A stretch of DNA of 23,392 nucleotides from an uncultured bacterium (GTDB taxonomy: Bacteria; Cyanobacteriota; Cyanobacteriia; Cyanobacteriales; Aerosakkonemataceae): NCBI GenBank assembly GCA_964546365.1, contig CAZJJR010000074.1:1-23392 (forward strand), read 5' to 3'. Positions 4,691 to 21,728 of the stretch are shown piece after piece. Position 1 is the first letter of the stretch; every line of letters begins with the position of its first letter. Both the position numbers and the translations under genes were made by a program. A model generated the notes under the pieces. That model searched no databases. It saw only the letters and a list, made by a program, of their open reading frames with translations, and was not told the DNA's origin.

Positions 4691-6478
4691 ATGCGAACCC
4701 ATTATTGCGGCCAAATTAGAGCTTCCCAGGTGGGAGAGACTGTCACCCTTTGTGGCTGGGTGGATCGTCGCCGCGATCACGGGGGCGTAATTTTCTTGGA
4801 TTTGCGCGATCGCTCCGGCGTTGTCCAAATTGTCAGTGACCCAGTACGCACCCCAGATTCCTACGCACAAGCTGAAAAGCTACGTAATGAGTATGTTGTA
4901 AAAATTACTGGTCGGGTAACGCCACGTCCGTCGGAATCCCTCAATCCGAAATTACCCACGGGTGAGATTGAAATTTACGCCGACCAAATCGAGCTACTCA
5001 ATCAGGTATACAAACAGCTGCCTTTCCAGGTATCGACTGGCGAAGAAGAGTCGGTGCGGGAAGAGTTGCGGCTAAGATATCGGTATTTGGATTTGCGGCG
5101 CGATCGCATGACTGCAAATTTGCAACTGCGCCACCAAGTCGTCAAAGCCATTCGCCGCTTCTTGGAAGACCAAGAAAACTTCATCGAAGTGGAAACACCG
5201 ATTTTGACTCGTTCCACTCCCGAAGGTGCAAGAGATTATTTAGTACCCAGTCGCGTTAACCCCGGTGAATGGTTTGCATTACCGCAATCACCCCAATTAT
5301 TTAAGCAATTATTGATGGTATCTGGCTTCGATCGTTACTATCAAATTGCTCGTTGTTTCCGGGATGAAGACTTACGCGCCGACAGACAACCAGAATTTAC
5401 TCAACTGGACATGGAAATGAGTTTCATGACTCAAGAAGATATTCTCCAGTTGAACGAAGCATTAGTTTGTCACGTTTTCAAAGCAGTCAAAGGAATTGAC
5501 TTACCGCGACCTTTCCCGCGTATAACTTATGCCGAAGCGATGTCGCGTTACGGTTGCGATAAACCAGACACTCGCTACGGTCTAGAATTAGTTGATGTTT
5601 CCGATATCGTTAAAGATTCTGGTTTCAAAGTGTTTTCCGGTGCTGTTGCATCCGGCGGTATCGTCAAAATATTACCCATTCCCGGCGGTAACGATTTGAT
5701 CTCTAACGTGCGGATCAAAGCAGGTGGCGACTTATTTAAAGAAGCTGCCGAAGCTGGTGCAAAAGGATTGGCTTACATTCGCGTGCGAGAAAATGGCGAA
5801 ATCGATACCATTGGCGCGATTAAAGATAACCTAACAGAAGAACAAAAGCAGGAAATCCTCAAGCGCACCAATGCACAAGCTGGTTGCTTGTTGTTATTTG
5901 CAGCCGACTCAGCCGCAGTGGTGAATAAAACACTCGATCGCTTGCGTCAAGTTATTGCACAGCAAATGGGATTAATCGATAACAATAAAATTAACTTGCT
6001 GTGGGTAACCGATTTCCCGATGTTTGAATGGAATGCAGATGAGAAGCGACTAGAAGCACTGCACCACCCATTCACCGCACCTCATCCCGATGACGTGGAC
6101 GACTTGAAAACCGCCAGAGCCCAAGCTTATGACTTAGTATTCAACGGTGTAGAACTTGGCGGTGGAAGTCGGCGGATTCATCAGCGCGATGTTCAAGAAA
6201 GAGTGTTTGAAACGATCGGCTTTTCTCCGGAAGAAGCGCGAAATAAATTTGGCTTTTTGCTAGAAGCTTTTGAATACGGTACGCCGCCTCACGGTGGGAT
6301 TGCCTACGGCTTAGATCGTTGGGTGATGCTGTTAGCTGGTGAAGAGTCAATTCGCGATGTAATTGCATTTCCGAAGACACAACAAGCTCGTTGCTTGTTA
6401 ACAAGTGCGCCATCTGGTGTAGATGAAAAACAGTTGAAGGAATTGCAAGTGCAATCGACTTACAAGCCAAAGAGTTAA
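4691..6478 (+). CDS. aspS: Aspartate--tRNA ligase (class II AspRS, bacterial type).
   Basis: It is 595 aa. The N-terminal anticodon-binding OB fold reads [34 protein letters not shown]. Class II motifs include [20 protein letters not shown] and GGGSRRIHQ...[14 protein letters not shown], plus the bacterial-type GAD insertion. The length is typical for bacterial AspS. Confidence 0.95.
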
Positions 6479-6514
6479 TTAATAGGAGTCAGGAGTCAGA
6501 ATTCGGAATTCAGA

Positions 6515-6627
6515 ATGATTTTGAGTGATGACTCCACTCCTCGTGGAGAGATTCGTTGGGTAAAACTCGATCCAACACTAGGTGTTGAAACTAAAAAAAT
6601 TCGCGCTTGTTCCATTGGGGATCTATT
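6515..6627 (+). pseudogene. N-terminal fragment of a PemK/MazF-family toxin, 37 codons then frame loss.
   Basis: Translation: [40 protein letters not shown]. The RG(D/E)I.WV.LDPT.G.E..K.RP motif is the hallmark start of MazF/PemK toxins. The ORF ends after ~37 aa, whereas MazF proteins are ~110 aa. Confidence 0.4.
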
Positions 6628-6856
6628 TCTCTGTTGAAAAAAGCAGTCCAATCTGATACTCGCGAAGCTTGCTGCATATTGTGAATCACCATAATAATGG
6701 TGTAACTTTCCTTTAGTTGAAGGCAAAGTTATTCAATTTGCTGAGTTGAAATCGGATCGAGAGCCGAACAAGGTTCATCCATCAACAAAACATCAGGTTT
6801 CATCGCGATCGCTCGATGAGATAGGCGATGCGATCGCCTGCCATACCCCGATGATT
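6584..6856 (-). pseudogene. pstB: 3' remnant of pstB (phosphate ABC transporter ATPase). The signature-to-C-terminus region is retained, with an in-frame TAA. The 5' half, including the Walker A region, is absent.
   Basis: Minus-strand translation: ...[73 protein letters not shown]... It matches the conserved PstB segment [67 protein letters not shown]. One in-frame stop sits where a Glu would be. The sequence diverges after TAFF. Upstream it is cut by a stop at ~6857. Confidence 0.55.
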
Positions 6857-6875
6857 TAAATCGCGGCTACACAAA

Positions 6876-6899
6876 CATAACCCGCCTTCGCGGGTTATG
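6876..6899 (-). terminator. Stem-loop: CATAACCCGC, loop CTTC, GCGGGTTATG. It lies just downstream of the alaX-like gene stop.
   Basis: Perfect 10-bp inverted repeat with a 4-nt loop, 15 bp past the stop of the 6914-7588 minus-strand gene. The minus strand continues TTTGTGT. Confidence 0.4.
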
Positions 6900-6913
6900 G
6901 GAATATGGGATCG

Positions 6914-7588
6914 TTAAGTTGCAATAGATGAAATTGTGCTAGCGTCTTCAATGCAATAGCTGAGTCTTAATTTTCCACCCTTAACCTTAACGGCAGTGAT
7001 TTTGACTTGATCAAGAACTCCTAGATTTTCTAAATGAGTTCCACCACAAGAAACGGCGGGAAAAGCTCCAATCTGAATTGCTCGTGAGGTTATAGGATCT
7101 CCAATGATTGAGACAGGTAGATTCTCCTGAATAGCTTGTTTGAGTGCCTCACCCAATTTTTTTTGCACAAGGTCAGACTGCGGTATATTTTCTCCTACAA
7201 ACTCAACACGTGCTTCACCTGACCAGTGATGCGCTCCGACTGCTTTTAAACCAGCAAATAACTGCTCCATGAGGGCTGCAATCAGATGTCCGCCCGTGTG
7301 GAGTTTACTGTTGGTAATACGCCACACTTCATCTACAGTAATTGTTACCTGTTGACCCACTTGTAATGTATGGTTTTCGTTTAGGTAATGATTAATTTGT
7401 CCATCAACATGAGCAACATGAGTGACAAGATGATCGTTAATTGTTCCTCGATCTGCTTTCTGTCCGCCGCCTTGAGGGTGCATTAAGGTTTCGTCTAAGC
7501 GAACCCAAGGCTTACCGTCATTTCCAACCTCGGTAATTAAGGCAGTACCCGTTAAAGAAGAATCAAAGAGATAGCGTTTTACGGTCAT
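6914..7588 (-). CDS. alaX: AlaX-type alanyl-tRNA trans-editing protein (AlaRS editing-domain homolog; Ser/Gly-tRNA(Ala) hydrolase).
   Basis: It is 224 aa. Zn-binding HxxxH (HTGGHLIAALMEQ) and CxxxH (VSCGGTHLEN) motifs are characteristic of the AlaRS/ThrRS second additional (editing) domain. The size matches AlaX-M. Confidence 0.75.
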   Translation of the reverse strand: MTVKRYLFDSSLTGTALITEVGNDGKPWVRLDETLMHPQGGGQKADRGTINDHLVTHVAHVDGQINHYLNENHTLQVGQQVTITVDEVWRITNSKLHTGGHLIAALMEQLFAGLKAVGAHHWSGEARVEFVGENIPQSDLVQKKLGEALKQAIQENLPVSIIGDPITSRAIQIGAFPAVSCGGTHLENLGVLDQVKITAVKVKGGKLRLSYCIEDASTISSIAT

Positions 7589-7621
7589 AATAAACTCCTG
7601 AAAGTAGGGGAAAAAAGTAGT

Positions 7622-7669
7622 TGATATATCCGGCAGACTTTAAATTTTCTCAATCTGCCGGATTGATAT
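7622..7669 (-). terminator. Hairpin: ATCCGGCAGA, a 16-nt loop, TCTGCCGGAT. It is flanked by the direct repeat TGATAT. The minus strand continues ATATCAACTACTTTTTTCC. Candidate intrinsic terminator for the 7676-8521 gene.
   Basis: Perfect 10-bp inverted repeat at 7628-7637 and 7654-7663. TGATAT occurs at 7622-7627 and 7664-7669. A T6 run lies ~10 nt 3' of the stem on the minus strand. Confidence 0.45.
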
Positions 7670-7675
7670 CAGGTT

Positions 7676-8521
7676 CTAGCTCCACATTGAAATAGGCATA
7701 TCTAATCCGCGAAACCCTATAAAGCAACTGTGAGTAACGCGCACTCCCAAAGATGGGCGCACTGCATGGATACAGGTAGAATCAAACAGAATTAAATCTC
7801 CTAATTGAGGCTGAATAGTGCAAGTCGGTAATGGAAGTTTTTGGCGTTCTAGTCCATAACATCCTGGAACGCGCAGTCGATCGTATTCTTCCTCCGAAAA
7901 GTGTTGCCACCAAAGATCTAGTTCCCCTCCAGATTCCGGGATATGAGTGTAGACGTTTACTGCAATCTGTCGGATTAGTTCCTTGGAACGTTCAAATTCT
8001 GGTGCATCAACTTGTAGCTTGTCGCGATGAGGTAGCGCCTCCGCTCCGTTGCGAAATACTCTGGCAGAACCTGCCCACATTGAATGTCCGCCAAGATGCT
8101 CAAACTGTACCCCAGCCAGCCAAACCTGATGCAACTCCATAAGCAAGAGACTGATGGGGGATAAGCGATACTTAAATCGCTCAATTTCCTGGTACATCCA
8201 ATCCATTGATTGTTGGAAATATTGCTGCCGTAGCTCAGGTTTTCCTACTGTGTCACAGAATGGGATACCCGTGCGTAAGATGTTTGGCTCAATGCCATAG
8301 CCACTCAAAGTTTCGTGGCTTAGAACTGATTGAGTAAACTCTTCTGCCAAACAAGAGGGATAGAAGTTCGGTACTCTCACCGCTAGAGTTTTTCCACAAA
8401 GTAAAGCTTCGAGATGCTGTCGTTGAAGTCTTTCTGTGACCGACAAAGAAGGTAGATGATTGTTGTTAACGTTCCAAGCATCGACAGTCAGTGGTTCCGG
8501 TAACATAGAGATTAACCTCAT
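7676..8521 (-). CDS. 2OG-Fe(II) oxygenase superfamily protein (putative hydroxylase).
   Basis: It is 281 aa. An HxD facial-triad motif (ALPHRDKLQ) and a distal His (DSTCIHAV) are followed by RVTHS, the R..S 2-oxoglutarate C5-carboxylate binding motif. The spacing is typical of the double-stranded beta-helix fold. The subfamily cannot be assigned by eye. Confidence 0.5.
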   Translation of the reverse strand: MRLISMLPEPLTVDAWNVNNNHLPSLSVTERLQRQHLEALLCGKTLAVRVPNFYPSCLAEEFTQSVLSHETLSGYGIEPNILRTGIPFCDTVGKPELRQQYFQQSMDWMYQEIERFKYRLSPISLLLMELHQVWLAGVQFEHLGGHSMWAGSARVFRNGAEALPHRDKLQVDAPEFERSKELIRQIAVNVYTHIPESGGELDLWWQHFSEEEYDRLRVPGCYGLERQKLPLPTCTIQPQLGDLILFDSTCIHAVRPSLGVRVTHSCFIGFRGLDMPISMWS

Positions 8522-8729: not shown

Positions 8730-11084
8730 GTGGCGTACAGACCTGAAGGTGCAAAGCTATTCGGAGCTGCAATCAAGTATTTACTAGATAAAAAAGGGCT
8801 GAGTCAGCGGAAGTTTGCAGAGCAAGCAGGCTTGGAGACTGGCTACGTTAGCAAGCTGGTTAATGGTGAGATTTCAGAACCAAGGCAGGAAAATCGCAGT
8901 AAAATTGCACAAGGCTTGGGGGTAACAGAGCAGCAGCTACAAGAGTTAGTCGTTCAGTACATTGAAGGGAAGAGAGAGACTGACGGGGGTAGTCCTAATT
9001 CTGGTGAGATCGCTTCCACTACCATCACCCCTAATACCCCATCCACCAACTCGAATTTTGTAGGCAGGGAAAAGGCGATCGCAGATCTCAACAACCTGAT
9101 TCAACAAGGTGCAAAAGCCATTGTCATCCAAGCAGCAGGCGGTGTTGGTAAAACTACCTTGGCATGGGAATATCTCAAAACTCAAGGGTTTGACTTGGTT
9201 CTCGACCTCCCAATGGCAAAGGTGAAAGAGAACATTTCTGCTGTTGAGGGTGTGATTGAAGGATCTGCTGTCGAGGATGTAATTGAAGGATGGCTGAAGT
9301 ATGACTTTCAAGAGGAATCAGGGCGAGAGTTTAGGGAAATGCTGAGGCGACTAAAGCGGCAACTCCAAACTCGTAAAGTTGGGGTATTGATTGATAACTT
9401 AGAACCAGCGCTGGATAAACAATGCAGGTTTATTGAACCCCATCGTTGCTATTATGTGGAACTGTTGCGAGTTTTGGCTGATCCAACGGTACAGTCTGTC
9501 ACGCTGATTACCAGCCGCGATCGCCTCTGTGACGATGATGTAAATGTAGAGCATTATCCGTTATCCGGATTAGATGAGCAAGCATGGCAACAATTTTTTA
9601 GCAGTCGCAATATCAATATACATACTCCCACTCTTAAGGCGATGCACAACGCTTATGGAGGCAATGCCAAAGCAATGGATATTTTCTGCGGTGCAATCCG
9701 ACAAGAGTTTGATGGAGATATGGCGGCTTATTGGCGGGAAAATAGCGCGGATCTGTTGGTGAAACCAGATTTAAAAAATTTAGTGACCAATCAGTTCAAT
9801 CGTCTGCAAGAAATTGATTTTCAAGCCTATCAACTCCTCTGTCGTTTGGGATGCTATCGCTATCAGGATGTGCCGACTGTTTCTACTCAAGGACTGTTGT
9901 GTTTGCTGTGGGATGTCGAAGAAGCGCGGCCTAGAAGAATTATTGAATCGTTGCGAAATCGCTCTTTAGTAGAGTTTAAAAAGGGAGAATACTGGCTGCA
10001 TCCAATGATTCGGGAAGAAGCGATCGGACGGTTGAGAGCAAGTGATGATTGGGAGAATACGAACCGCAAATCCGCCGAGTTTTGGGCAGCAAGTATCGAA
10101 ATAATTGAAACTGTAAAAGATGCTCTGACAGCTTTAGAGGCTTATTATCACTATGTAGAGATTGATGATTTTGAGTTTGCTGGTAGTGTTATTGTTAAAG
10201 ATAGAAGTAACAAATGGGAAAAAGATGAATGTCTTGGTATAGCATCTTATAGACTGGGTTTATTACAAAAAATGATTTTCGCAATAAATCGAATAGTAAA
10301 CAAGCTTAATTCTAGCTACAACCTGGGAAGACTTTATAATATTTTGGGAGATCTTTACTGGCTAACAGGCTCTTTTACGAAGAGTATTGAATCTCACCAA
10401 AAATCAGAAGAGTTCGCAGTTATCTTCAAACAAAAAAGTCTTGAAGTCGTTGCTTCTTTTAATATAGGTCTTTGCAAAATAGATTTATTAGAAGTTAACC
10501 AAGCGGTAGAGTTGTTTGAAAAAGTTATCTCACTTGCTGAAAATACAGAATGCCATAGATATGCGATACAGTCCTGGTATTGCCTAGCATTTTTAAAGTC
10601 ATGCTTAGGTTTGAGGCAGGAAGCACTTTACTTTGCAAATAAGAGTTACAATGAACTCCCAACAGTAAAGTGGAGTGCATGGGCTAAAGGATATAGTTTC
10701 TTGTTTTTAGGTCAGACCTACAATAATTTAAGAGAAGCTGAAAAGTCTATTGAAATGTACAATAAAGCTATTCAATTTGCTGAAGAAAGTCACTACACTC
10801 AGGTAAGAGCAAAAGCTCTTACTGGCATAGCAGAGCTATGCCGAAAACAGGGGGATTTAGAAACCGCAATACCAAATCATTTAAAATCAATAGAACTTCT
10901 AGATAAAATCGGCGCTAAATGCGACCTTGCAGAAGCTTACTACCAACTAGGATTAACTTATCAAAAGATAGGTGATACTGAAAAAAGTCAGGATAATTTT
11001 GATAAAGCAATTCAACTATTCAGTGAAATGGAAGCACCCAAGCAAGTTAAGAAAGTGCGACGGGCGATGGAAAATGGGGGATAA
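8730..11084 (+). CDS. STAND-class signalling NTPase: N-terminal XRE-type HTH, NB-ARC (AP-ATPase) domain, C-terminal TPR repeats. GTG start.
   Basis: It is 784 aa. HTH: LSQRKFAEQAGLETGYVSKLVNGE. Low-complexity S/T/N/P linker. Walker A: VIQAAGGVGKTTLAWEY. Walker B: KVGVLIDNLE. RNBS-B-like: VTLITSRDR. C-terminal TPR-like helical repeats, e.g. LAEAYYQLGLTYQKIGDTEKSQDNFDKAIQLFSE. An in-frame TGA lies upstream of the GTG, so the start is at GTG 8730 or at a downstream ATG. Confidence 0.85.
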   Translation: MAYRPEGAKLFGAAIKYLLDKKGLSQRKFAEQAGLETGYVSKLVNGEISEPRQENRSKIAQGLGVTEQQLQELVVQYIEGKRETDGGSPNSGEIASTTITPNTPSTNSNFVGREKAIADLNNLIQQGAKAIVIQAAGGVGKTTLAWEYLKTQGFDLVLDLPMAKVKENISAVEGVIEGSAVEDVIEGWLKYDFQEESGREFREMLRRLKRQLQTRKVGVLIDNLEPALDKQCRFIEPHRCYYVELLRVLADPTVQSVTLITSRDRLCDDDVNVEHYPLSGLDEQAWQQFFSSRNINIHTPTLKAMHNAYGGNAKAMDIFCGAIRQEFDGDMAAYWRENSADLLVKPDLKNLVTNQFNRLQEIDFQAYQLLCRLGCYRYQDVPTVSTQGLLCLLWDVEEARPRRIIESLRNRSLVEFKKGEYWLHPMIREEAIGRLRASDDWENTNRKSAEFWAASIEIIETVKDALTALEAYYHYVEIDDFEFAGSVIVKDRSNKWEKDECLGIASYRLGLLQKMIFAINRIVNKLNSSYNLGRLYNILGDLYWLTGSFTKSIESHQKSEEFAVIFKQKSLEVVASFNIGLCKIDLLEVNQAVELFEKVISLAENTECHRYAIQSWYCLAFLKSCLGLRQEALYFANKSYNELPTVKWSAWAKGYSFLFLGQTYNNLREAEKSIEMYNKAIQFAEESHYTQVRAKALTGIAELCRKQGDLETAIPNHLKSIELLDKIGAKCDLAEAYYQLGLTYQKIGDTEKSQDNFDKAIQLFSEMEAPKQVKKVRRAMENGG

Positions 11085-11532: not shown

Positions 11533-14214
11533 ATGGATATGAATACAACCGATCGCAAATTGGAAAATCAAACTGAAATCTCCGGAAGTTCTAGTGGAGT
11601 AATTCGTCTCAAACCTCAACAATTCATTCACGTTTTAGATAACAATACTGGCGTTACTAGACTGGAAGTTGGCCCTCAAACGATTACTTTACGCGATCAC
11701 GAACGGTTAATATTGAAACCGGAACCGATGATTGTCGTACCGCCTCGATACTATTGCATCATTGAAAATCCCGTGCTTCGCGATGAAGATGGTAATCCGA
11801 TTGTTGACGAACACGGACAAATCAAACTTCGTTACGGCGATGCAGAAATTCGCTTTGCACAAGAACCTTTTCCCCTTTATCCCGGTGAAGAACTGGCAGG
11901 GGAAATCACGCAACTGCAAGTTGTGGAAAGAAATCAAGCACTACGTCTGAGAGCAATTCGCGATTTTGCCGATGCAATTACAGTTACGGTAGATGGAGAA
12001 AGCGAAACTCAAACTATCAACCGTTTAGCTGGAGATGAATGGTTATTTGAAGGGCCAGGAACTTATATTCCTCGCATTCAAGTGGAAGTTTTAGAGATAA
12101 TTCCTGCCAGAGTAATTAAACCAAATCAAGCTTTAAGATTAGTGGCAAGGCAGAATTGCATCGACCGTCAAGGTAATAGAAGAAGATCGGGTGAAGAATG
12201 GTTGGTGAGGGAAGAAGGTGCTTATTTACCAGGAGTTGATGAAGAGGTTGTTGGCATAATTAATGCTTACGTTTTAACTGAAAAGAAAGCATTGCATCTA
12301 AGAGCAAAACGCACTTTTAACGATGTTTTCGGTCGGCAACGTAAAGCAGGTGATGAATGGTTAGTTACCTTTGAAGATGCAGAAATCCACATTCCCGATG
12401 TTTATGAAGAGGTGGTGGGAGAAGTAAAAATTACCACTTTGGGCGACCGAGAATGGTGCATTGTTCTCAACCCAATTGATGAAGATGGTAAACCGCAATT
12501 GGGAATGCAAGAGGTGAGACAGGGGAGAATTTCGTTTTTTTTGCATCCAGGTGAATCGCTGGAAAACGGCATTCAAAAAGTTTATGTTTTGGGAGAACAG
12601 GAAGCACTTTTGCTGAAAGCTAAAGAAGCTTTTAGTGAGGGTGAAGGTGATAATTTAATCGAACGACAACCAGGGGATATGTGGATGATTGCAGGGCCAA
12701 GAGATTATATCCCGCCTGTAGAAGTAGAAGTAATCGAGAAACGTCAAGCAATTCCTCTTGATAAGAATGAAGGAATTTATATTAGGGATATTCAGACGGG
12801 CGAACTGAAGGTTGTCAGTGGGCCTCAAGCTTATATGCTCAGTCCTTATGAAGAACTTTGGGAAAAAGAACTGCCGCCAGTTGTGGAAGAACTTTTAGCG
12901 CTAAAAAATGACCCGGTTTCCGAACGGGGTCGGCATCATTTTACCAAAGGAGAGCGCCAAAATCAAACATTAGAAATTTCCGCAAATTATCAGGCAACAA
13001 GCGAACGAGATAAGACTAGAGCAGTAGTTTTTCACGTTCCGCAAAATGCCGCCGTGCAAATACATGATTATAAGGAAAGAACGGCGCGAACTGTATTTGG
13101 GCCAGACTTAGTAATGCTGGGGCCAGATGAAGCTTTTACGGTGTTGAGTTTATCCGGTAGCGTACCGAAAAGACCTCATGTAATCAAGTCTTTAGCTTTA
13201 TTATTAGGGCCAGATTTCATGACCGATTTGTTTACTGTCGAAACATCAGATCATGCCCGACTTCAGTTGCGTTTGTCTTATAATTGGTATTTTGATGTTA
13301 GTAGACATGACGAACAAGCGGCGGCAAAACTTTTTCAAGTACCTGATTTTGTAGATACTGCTTGTAAGGCGATCGCATCTCGCGTGCGGGGTGCGGTAGC
13401 CAGCGTAAAATTTGACGAATTTCACCGCAATTCGGCGCGGATTATTCGCACTGCTGTCTTCGGTACGGATGCTGAAGGTCGCGTGGGTGAAGAATTCCGT
13501 TTTAGAACCAATAATTTGGTGATTTTCAATGTTGATATTCAATCAGTAGAACCAGTAGATGAGGAAACTTTAAAAAGTTTGCAAAAGTCAGTACAAATTG
13601 CCATTCAAATTACTACCGATGCTCAAGAAGCTGCTGCCAGACATGATGCTGAACGAATCGAACAAGAAGCAAAATCACGATTAGAAAGGCAGGCAATCGT
13701 CGATAAAGGTGCGGCAGAAGGAGAACGGAGAAATTTGCTGGAGTTGCAAGCAGAAAACTCTGCGATCGAAACTACGGGTAAAGCCACCGCAGAAGCCAGA
13801 GCAAAAGCAGAAGCCGCCAGAATTGAAGGGCAATTAGCTGTTAATTTAGCTCAACAAGAAGCTGAAGCGGCGAGAATTCGTTACGAAGCTGAATTGGCTC
13901 AATTAAGATCTAAACAGGAAGCTGAATTAGCTCATCAACAAGCACTAATTGCTTTGGAAATTGAAAAAGCACAGCGCATGGCGGAAATTACCAGTACAGA
14001 ATTCAGGCAAAAAGTGGAAGCGATCGGCCCAGAAACCTTGCAAGCAATGGCGCAAGCTGGCCCGGAAATGCAGGCGAGACTTTTGCAATCTCTTGGTCTA
14101 CAAAGCGTATTAATTACTGATGGTAGAAGTCCGATCAATCTATTTAGTACTGCTCAGGGTTTGATAAGTCCAATTGCTGCTGACAGTGCTCAGTTACCAA
14201 AAGGCGATCGCTAA
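11533..14214 (+). CDS. mvp: Major vault protein (MVP) homolog, full length. It has MVP repeat domains, an SPFH-like shoulder, a cap-helix coiled coil and a cap-ring.
   Basis: It is 893 aa and collinear with human MVP from memory. [17 protein letters not shown] corresponds to [33 protein letters not shown] is identical. NQALRLRA and [12 protein letters not shown] correspond to [10 protein letters not shown] and [28 protein letters not shown] corresponds to [56 protein letters not shown] corresponds to [63 protein letters not shown] and PINLF are conserved. HIP1 GCGATCGC lies inside the gene at ~13369 and ~14203. There are no introns. Confidence 0.9.
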   Translation: [893 protein letters not shown]

Positions 14215-19051: not shown

Positions 19052-19068
19052 ATTAAGTGAAGGGTAGA

Positions 19069-19102
19069 GAAACCCGGTTTCTTGAAGAAACCGGGTTTCT
19101 AG
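19069..19102. repeat. Copy 1 of a 34-bp perfect palindromic element, AGAAACCCGGTTTCT-TGA-AGAAACCGGGTTTCTA. It acts as a hairpin immediately after dacB.
   Basis: A 15-bp perfect stem with a 3-nt loop. An identical 34-mer recurs at 21695-21728. Confidence 0.65.
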
Positions 19103-21336: not shown

Positions 21337-21694
21337 ATTGGAGATTTCCTTTAATAACGTTCTTATAGCTTCATATTTATGAAAGGCTAACTTTAAGCTA
21401 TCTGCTCGTTTTTACCAATATGAGAAATGTGCGAAATGTTTTATCTGTGAGATTTGCATGAATTTTCCAAGGCAATCATATTCATGGCTTAGGTAAGAGA
21501 GTCACGCTTAAATCAACCCCACGCAGAGGAAGGGAAGAGAGGAGAACGATCGCATTTTGGCTATTTTGATAGTTGGCGACGTATTGCTTAGTCGCAGAAA
21601 CATTGAATAATTCTTATTGATTAGTTTAAATGTTGCACAACGTTGAAGCCGCTCTAATCGAAAATACAGAACTTTCCAGGTAAATGAGGTATAC

Positions 21695-21728
21695 AGAAAC
21701 CCGGTTTCTTGAAGAAACCGGGTTTCTA
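21695..21728. repeat. Copy 2 of the 34-bp palindromic element, identical to 19069-19102.
   Basis: The sequence AGAAACCCGGTTTCTTGAAGAAACCGGGTTTCTA was read at both loci. The flanks differ. Confidence 0.65.

Follow-up and report, generated by a model that had tools for sequence, protein, structure and literature searches.

Gene remnants of deletional decay are a known kind of feature in bacterial genomes. They are truncated at both ends, carry lesions, lie in a spacer at a synteny breakpoint and have no conserved partners. The 435-bp spacer (6479–6913) between the convergent genes aspS and alaX is alike in all of these respects, and its content is ordinary genomic debris. The host contig, from a filamentous-type cyanobacterium, is 23,392 bp long, and this whole stretch of analysed DNA is called the window here. 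Compared with ordinary remnants, two features of the spacer are unusual: fragments of two unrelated genes, pstB and mazF, are cleanly joined tail to tail, and one breakpoint is located exactly at HIP1. HIP1 is the highly iterated palindrome of cyanobacteria (GCGATCGC). It has been proposed as a Chi-like recombination promoter (bioRxiv 10.1101/2024.09.10.611283), and its function is unsettled (PMC5861425).

The features of the spacer and of its two boundaries are as follows.

4691–6478, plus strand: aspS, aspartyl-tRNA synthetase, intact; the left boundary of the spacer.
6484–6541, plus strand: hairpin of 58 nt directly 3' of the aspS stop codon (RNA folding).
6515–6637, plus strand: 40-aa ORF, a called gene on record (P0241; NCBI, Logan).
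6542–6617, plus strand: 5' fragment of mazF/pemK (blastn, tblastn).
6618–6625, no strand: tail-to-tail joint of mazF and pstB, J2 (ends of both blastn alignments and a multiple alignment).
6626–6814, minus strand: internal fragment of pstB (TIGR00972, blastn).
6729–6731, minus strand: TAA nonsense codon within the pstB fragment; GAA or CAA in relatives.
6805–6812, no strand: HIP1 octamer GCGATCGC at the RAIA codons of pstB, marking the junction J3 (HIP1 map).
6815–6875, no strand: 61 nt leading from the pstB fragment to the alaX terminator, including a second HIP1, without pstB signal.
6876–6899, minus strand: intrinsic-terminator-like hairpin of alaX with a 10-bp stem and the tail TTTGTGT (terminator scan).
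6914–7588, minus strand: alaX-like gene for an alanyl-tRNA editing protein, intact (Pfam tRNA-synt_2c and tRNA_SAD); the right boundary of the spacer.

AspS is matched by Pfam tRNA-synt_2 (E 4e-131) together with the GAD and OB domains, and its residues 1–595 align to 80 relatives. At the other end, the terminator hairpin of alaX folds with -19 kcal/mol (z -4.3). As the sequence-only reading had stated, no intact gene is present between aspS and alaX, and the two fragments are the gene remnants of the spacer. In an Rfam search of 6300–7100, no family reached its gathering score (the best scores were 23.2 bits against 35, and 17.7 against 88). The match of 23.2 bits corresponds to the terminator hairpin, which resembles a CRISPR repeat. 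A promoter scan of the spacer gave no promoter-like site, and no repeat family joins the spacer to the remaining window. Two Logan contigs from other read sets, L082 (SRR12997673; 6543–9940) and L083 (SRR8581213; 5770–7605), are both 100% identical to the window. As the identity includes the TAA codon and the junctions covered, the arrangement is real and is not an assembly chimera.

The minus-strand translation from 6920 reads PstB sequence. The pstB fragment is a gapless stretch of 189 bp without frameshift, corresponding to 62 residues (approximately 168–230 of the 269-aa PstB), and about a quarter of the protein (~23%) is retained. TIGR00972, the NCBIfam PstB equivalog, ranks top and is matched at profile positions 156–217 of 248 with E 2e-28, whereas the non-Pst ABC families match the fragment at 1e-12 or weaker. 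The score of 99.4 bits is below the curated full-length cut-off of 343.2. With the pstB of L081, blastn aligned 156 of 189 nt (83%) over 6626–6814 without gaps. L081 is a contig of Logan SRR27710289, in which the pstSCAB operon is complete except for an in-frame TGA in its pstB. When 72,556 plasmids were searched by blastn, pstB genes were the sole matches, with the limits 6626–6815. The fragment belongs with the cyanobacterial-type PstB carrying the FFNTE.D..GKR insertion, to which it is 81–90% identical over the 62 residues. The HIP1 octamer at the RAIA codons is also present in three reference pstB genes.

The Walker B (LLMDEP), D-loop (SALD) and H-loop (HN) motifs are kept in the fragment. 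It has neither Walker A, Q-loop nor LSGGQ signature, and ~39 residues are missing from the C-terminus. Thus the fragment, which had been described as reaching from the signature to the C-terminus, is an internal piece of PstB. Its upstream limit had been placed at ~6857 on a degenerate LSGGQQQRL reading; the shuffle test rules this extension out, and the actual limit is 6814, at HIP1. The 45 nt flanking the pstB block on each side score no higher against the pstB flanks than the shuffle mean. In tblastn the PstB alignment appears to run on to 6603, but this part falls on sequence firmly assigned to mazF and was put down to chance.

The nonsense change that had been noted in the fragment is present: the TAA at 6729–6731 interrupts the reading frame. 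Among 120 relatives the residue at this column is Glu (70), Asp (45) or Gln (5). The Thr residue beside the H-loop His is invariant in all 120 relatives, whereas Ile is present in the fragment. These two are the only states among the 62 residues that are unseen in the 120 relatives. The differences from the L081 pstB at codon positions 1, 2 and 3 number 6, 3 and 24. The excess of third-position differences and the mere two unseen residues indicate that purifying selection acted through nearly all of the history of the fragment. Judging from the sequence, the pstB piece would be a young remnant that was inactivated recently.

Compared with a functional PstB, the fragment has the in-frame TAA, the Ile in place of Thr, and no pstS, pstC or pstA neighbours. 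The Walker A half and the remaining pst operon are missing, as the sequence-only reading had it: in tblastn searches of the 23.4-kb window, the L081 PstS, PstC and PstA gave only E > 0.2 anywhere, and the N-terminal half of PstB is absent elsewhere in the contig at the same level (E > 0.2).

Three further observations on pstB were made. First, the uniform 97-aa PstB matches in the databases were considered as a family of truncated pstB genes and rejected. The case in L171 is a gene-calling artefact, in which the pstB gene starts 17 nt from the contig end, and most of the other 97-aa cases are located on contigs of 0.6–2 kb. Second, L081 is the exception among them, with an actual in-frame TGA in place of a gene-calling artefact. 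In L081 (6440–6520) CGA is changed to TGA at the conserved Arg of CIARAIA, and the gene calls are split into 168 and 97 aa. Directly 3' of this TGA lies the HIP1 octamer at which the pstB fragment of the window begins; the TGA could mark a real pseudogene or be a read error. Third, 19 of 20 nt around the pstB TAA (6725–6744) match 10764–10783 in the TPR region of the STAND gene, which is probably chance.

The second fragment is derived from mazF. Against the mazF of L084 (the gene of P0242), blastn aligned 66 of 76 nt (87%) over 6542–6617. The intact 121-aa MazF of L170 gave a tblastn match at its residues 13–37 only, with 72% identity and E 3.5e-9, in place of a complete MazF domain of ~110 aa. 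With an operon PstB as the query, the pstB fragment was matched by tblastn at E 1.9e-36. The two remnants proposed from the letters alone are therefore both genuine. The Pfam PemK match of the 40-aa ORF is weak (E 0.013; 16.1 bits against a gathering score of 23.1; positions 2–24 of 109). The ORF shares 19 of 19 residues with P0242, whose PF02452 match is on record, and the region matched is the N-terminal strand region of the MazF/PemK toxin.

An exhaustive phmmer search gave 88 relatives of the mazF fragment, and the intact members are 105–125 aa long. The N-terminus of this subfamily reads MPxGxLxYxRGEIRWVxLDPTxGxExxKTR(A/P)CLIxQND, in which "RAC" is a natural variant. The remnant keeps about 26 of ~115 codons, roughly codons 10–35, from the 5' third of the gene. 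The C-terminal part of MazF is absent elsewhere in the 23.4-kb contig (tblastn, E > 0.2), and MazE queries from L084 and L170 gave no match in the window. Intact mazF loci have an overlapping upstream RHH-like ORF of 79–80 aa, whereas no antitoxin gene accompanies the fragment; the first mazF-like base comes only 63 nt after the aspS stop codon, and the hairpin fills this interval. According to a representative library, this MazF subfamily is often truncated or frameshifted, at varied points. In six Logan contigs (L084–L089), another mazF of the subfamily is cut within ~9 nt of the cut point in the window, and this truncated mazF retains a 79-aa RHH-like antitoxin ORF. Long proteins with six matched stretches were also obtained in the MazF search; these are unrelated WVEVAPTLGAET repeat proteins and are not MazF arrays.

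An N-terminal MazF fragment had been assigned to 6515–6627. The mazF sequence is present, but it is confined to 6542–6617, and no mazF homology is detected upstream of 6542. The 40-aa ORF begins inside the hairpin, which takes up its ATG (6515) and its first 9 codons, and this part is thus not mazF; the start codon differs from the native MazF start, and only residues 10–35 are MazF-like. The 40-aa ORF is a fortuitous frame over a hairpin arm, the mazF fragment and antisense pstB.

The hairpin 6484–6541 folds with -28.3 kcal/mol (z -5.4), and none of 200 shuffled sequences was as stable. It is built from heptamer tandem duplications, AGGAGTC x2.3 and TCAGAAT x3 (TRF: 6484–6499 and 6496–6516). 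In Microseira wollei (L002), the heptamer GGCTAAT is repeated six times directly after the aspS stop codon. These heptamer repeats after aspS are reminiscent of the STRR heptamer repeats of filamentous cyanobacteria.

Three junctions are defined in the spacer: J1 between 6541 and 6542, J2 at 6617–6626, and J3 between 6814 and 6815. The proposal of a rearrangement scar with at least two breakpoints is therefore upheld. At J1, where the start region of mazF and the antitoxin gene are gone, the remaining mazF piece now abuts the hairpin after aspS. At J2, the mazF and pstB fragments, which lie on opposite strands and have both lost their 3' ends, are joined tail to tail with at most 8 nt between them, and not ~50 bp as had been estimated. 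At J3, everything 5' of the internal HIP1 octamer is gone from the pstB piece; the first matching stretch is GAGCGATCGCGATG, and no pstB signal is detected past 6814. A second HIP1 is located at 6830–6837, 25 nt from the octamer at the pstB edge. The window has 13 HIP1 sites, two of them inside the 435-bp spacer. The coincidence of HIP1 and breakpoint was noticed post hoc; by our own estimate ~12 of 810 positions would qualify, giving p ~0.015 for a uniformly placed breakpoint. One HIP1 boundary proves nothing on a role in recombination.

The flank of aspS was compared among 80 cyanobacterial loci, whose AspS proteins are 78–87% identical to that of the window (the closest, from Floridaenema, is 87% identical). 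Within 10 kb of aspS in these loci, no pstB, mazF, alaX, 2OG oxygenase, STAND NTPase or MVP gene was found. An upstream ORF of 218 aa is the sole syntenic gene, present in 43 loci at E <= 1e-3 and in 25 at 1e-8. The sequences of the relatives diverge at the first base past the aspS stop codon, and no downstream neighbour is common; the largest cluster comprises 8 of the 80 loci, all of them Nostocales. According to this comparison of sequences, the 3' flank of aspS is a hypervariable slot for accessory genes. Adjacency of mazEF and pst was found neither at L170 (with intact mazEF), L081 and L171 nor in 80 metagenome loci. In a metagenome scan with the PstB fragment, the matches listed are generic PstBs (69–78%), with no MazF of the subfamily nearby. 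The only copies of AlaX and of the 40-aa ORF that were found sit on contigs identical to the window.

Several observations were made to the right of the spacer. No HIP1 site is present in the 1.5 kb of alaX and the adjacent gene for a 2OG-Fe(II)/WelO5-like oxygenase (6914–8521, minus strand); a foreign origin of this pair is weakly hinted at. An HTH-STAND-TPR NTPase gene (8730–11084, plus strand) lies upstream of a gene for an 893-aa MVP homologue (11533–14214, plus strand). The latter protein has all the Vault-repeat and shoulder domains (Pfam E 2e-68 and 2e-52), and bacterial and cyanobacterial MVP homologues have already been described (bioRxiv 10.1101/872010; PMC3762200). Two copies of a 48-nt palindromic repeat, AGAAACCCGGTTTCTTGAAGAAACCGGGTTTCT, are 90% identical (19054–19101 and 21681–21728), and a similar motif follows the aspS stop codon in Dapis sp. 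(L010). This repeat is probably a small dispersed hairpin element.

Significant homology, truncation with lesions, and the lack of an intact ORF are found for both fragments, as in pseudogene fragments. No protein function is expected for either of them, because the PstB piece is without Walker A, Q-loop and signature, and the MazF piece is without most of the fold. In our judgement, the spacer probably holds non-functional remnants of two accessory genes at the edge of the hypervariable slot, left by at least three events of illegitimate recombination (deletion or replacement). The mazEF genes and pstB would have sat earlier in an accessory segment at the aspS 3' slot. One deletion at J2 would have taken the 3' ends of the two neighbours, which would once have been convergent. 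As the pstB fragment ends exactly at the octamer, J3 suggests that crossing-over took place at the 8-bp HIP1 palindrome, or that this palindrome offered microhomology, during replacement of the neighbouring DNA. Since neither a convergent mazEF–pst pair nor either gene beside aspS was seen in the relatives and databases, we infer the ancestral order from the fragments themselves.

A rather unlikely alternative is that the two pieces never belonged to intact genes at the aspS 3' flank. Resident pstB and mazF genes at other places in the genome would have been their source, and copying would have occurred during break repair or template switching. At 76 and 189 bp the pieces are short; their joint is clean, they stem from gene interiors, and they bring no remnants of neighbouring genes, as would be expected of such copies; the unprecedented adjacency of mazEF and pst also fits. 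L082 stops at 6543, a single base away from where the mazF homology starts, and a further mazF copy of identical sequence in its sample may be the cause. Such a copy, or a variant strain, could create a de Bruijn branch there, and low coverage could also account for the end. However, L083 and the source contig cross 6543 unbroken. In addition, the pstB piece bears two unique disabling changes and is thus no fresh copy, unless the source was already a pseudogene. To our knowledge, patch or filler capture from resident genes is poorly documented in bacteria.

The remnant reading already includes HIP1 as a possible crossover site. A stronger version, which we regard as unlikely, takes the scar as a natural record of HIP1-mediated illegitimate recombination and adds, more exotically, an antisense regulator of pstB.

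Less likely again is the insertion proposed in the sequence-only reading, in which an ancestral pstSCAB operon and mazEF lay beside aspS, and some or all of the alaX–oxygenase–STAND–MVP block then entered the locus by insertion, taking the place of the 5' end of pstB. The 5' cut of the pstB fragment is 100 bp from the alaX stop codon, the closest relative of alaX in the database is no more than 60% identical (the best named match is from an Acidobacteriota MAG), and no gene of the block is linked to aspS elsewhere. Nevertheless, the 80 aspS relatives have no pst or mazEF genes nearby, so a former pst and toxin–antitoxin locus here is unsupported, and the displaced halves of the two genes are nowhere else in the 23.4-kb contig. 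Decay without insertion had been tied to relatives with the same arrangement and no intact pstB or mazF nearby; both genes are indeed absent near aspS in the relatives, but this arrangement is absent too. HIP1 sites are present inside the STAND and MVP genes, and thus at least these two are not recent imports from outside the cyanobacteria. The features of a discrete insertion are also lacking. The GC profile has no composition step at the spacer, the ORFs that were scanned with Pfam gave no integrase or transposase domain, and the alaX–MVP block has no flanking repeats. Synteny never resumes rightward: up to the contig end at 23,392, none of the genes to the right of aspS is linked to aspS in any relative, and therefore no far end of an insert is definable; a larger island may extend past the contig end.

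It is very improbable that the spacer has acquired a function, either as aspS read-through RNA with 189 nt antisense to pstB that modulates pst, or as a 40-aa micro-protein. No T-run terminator-like site is present on the plus strand from the aspS stop codon to 6876, the ORF is recorded as a called gene, and the whole spacer folds better than shuffled sequences (z -5.8). However, the hairpins at the two ends of the spacer, the HIP1 palindromes and inverted repeats that come with pstB codons account for this folding, and the hairpin of -28 kcal/mol after aspS would probably stop or stabilize the transcript. The spacer also gave neither a promoter-like site nor an Rfam family at gathering score. 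The ORF starts within a hairpin arm, and its C-terminal codons are antisense to pstB. As the sole copies found are identical to the window, conservation is not shown.

An assembly or sequencing artefact, either a chimeric join or a wrong stop codon, might be suspected from a short source contig (23.4 kb) in a draft assembly, but its probability is negligible because the two independent read-set assemblies agree 100% with the window.

For the annotation, the 40-aa "gene" on record is an artefact to be removed, and two pseudogene-fragment features belong in the spacer. If the antisense addition were true, a 189-nt anti-pstB segment would ride in the aspS 3' UTR and act as a regulator. The wider interest is limited to the match between HIP1 and the breakpoint, which would bear on the role of HIP1 if it recurs genome-wide. 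If the HIP1-recombination reading were true, HIP1 would drive the turnover of gene content at variable slots of cyanobacteria. The locus marks the aspS 3' flank as a variable accessory-gene slot in filamentous cyanobacteria.
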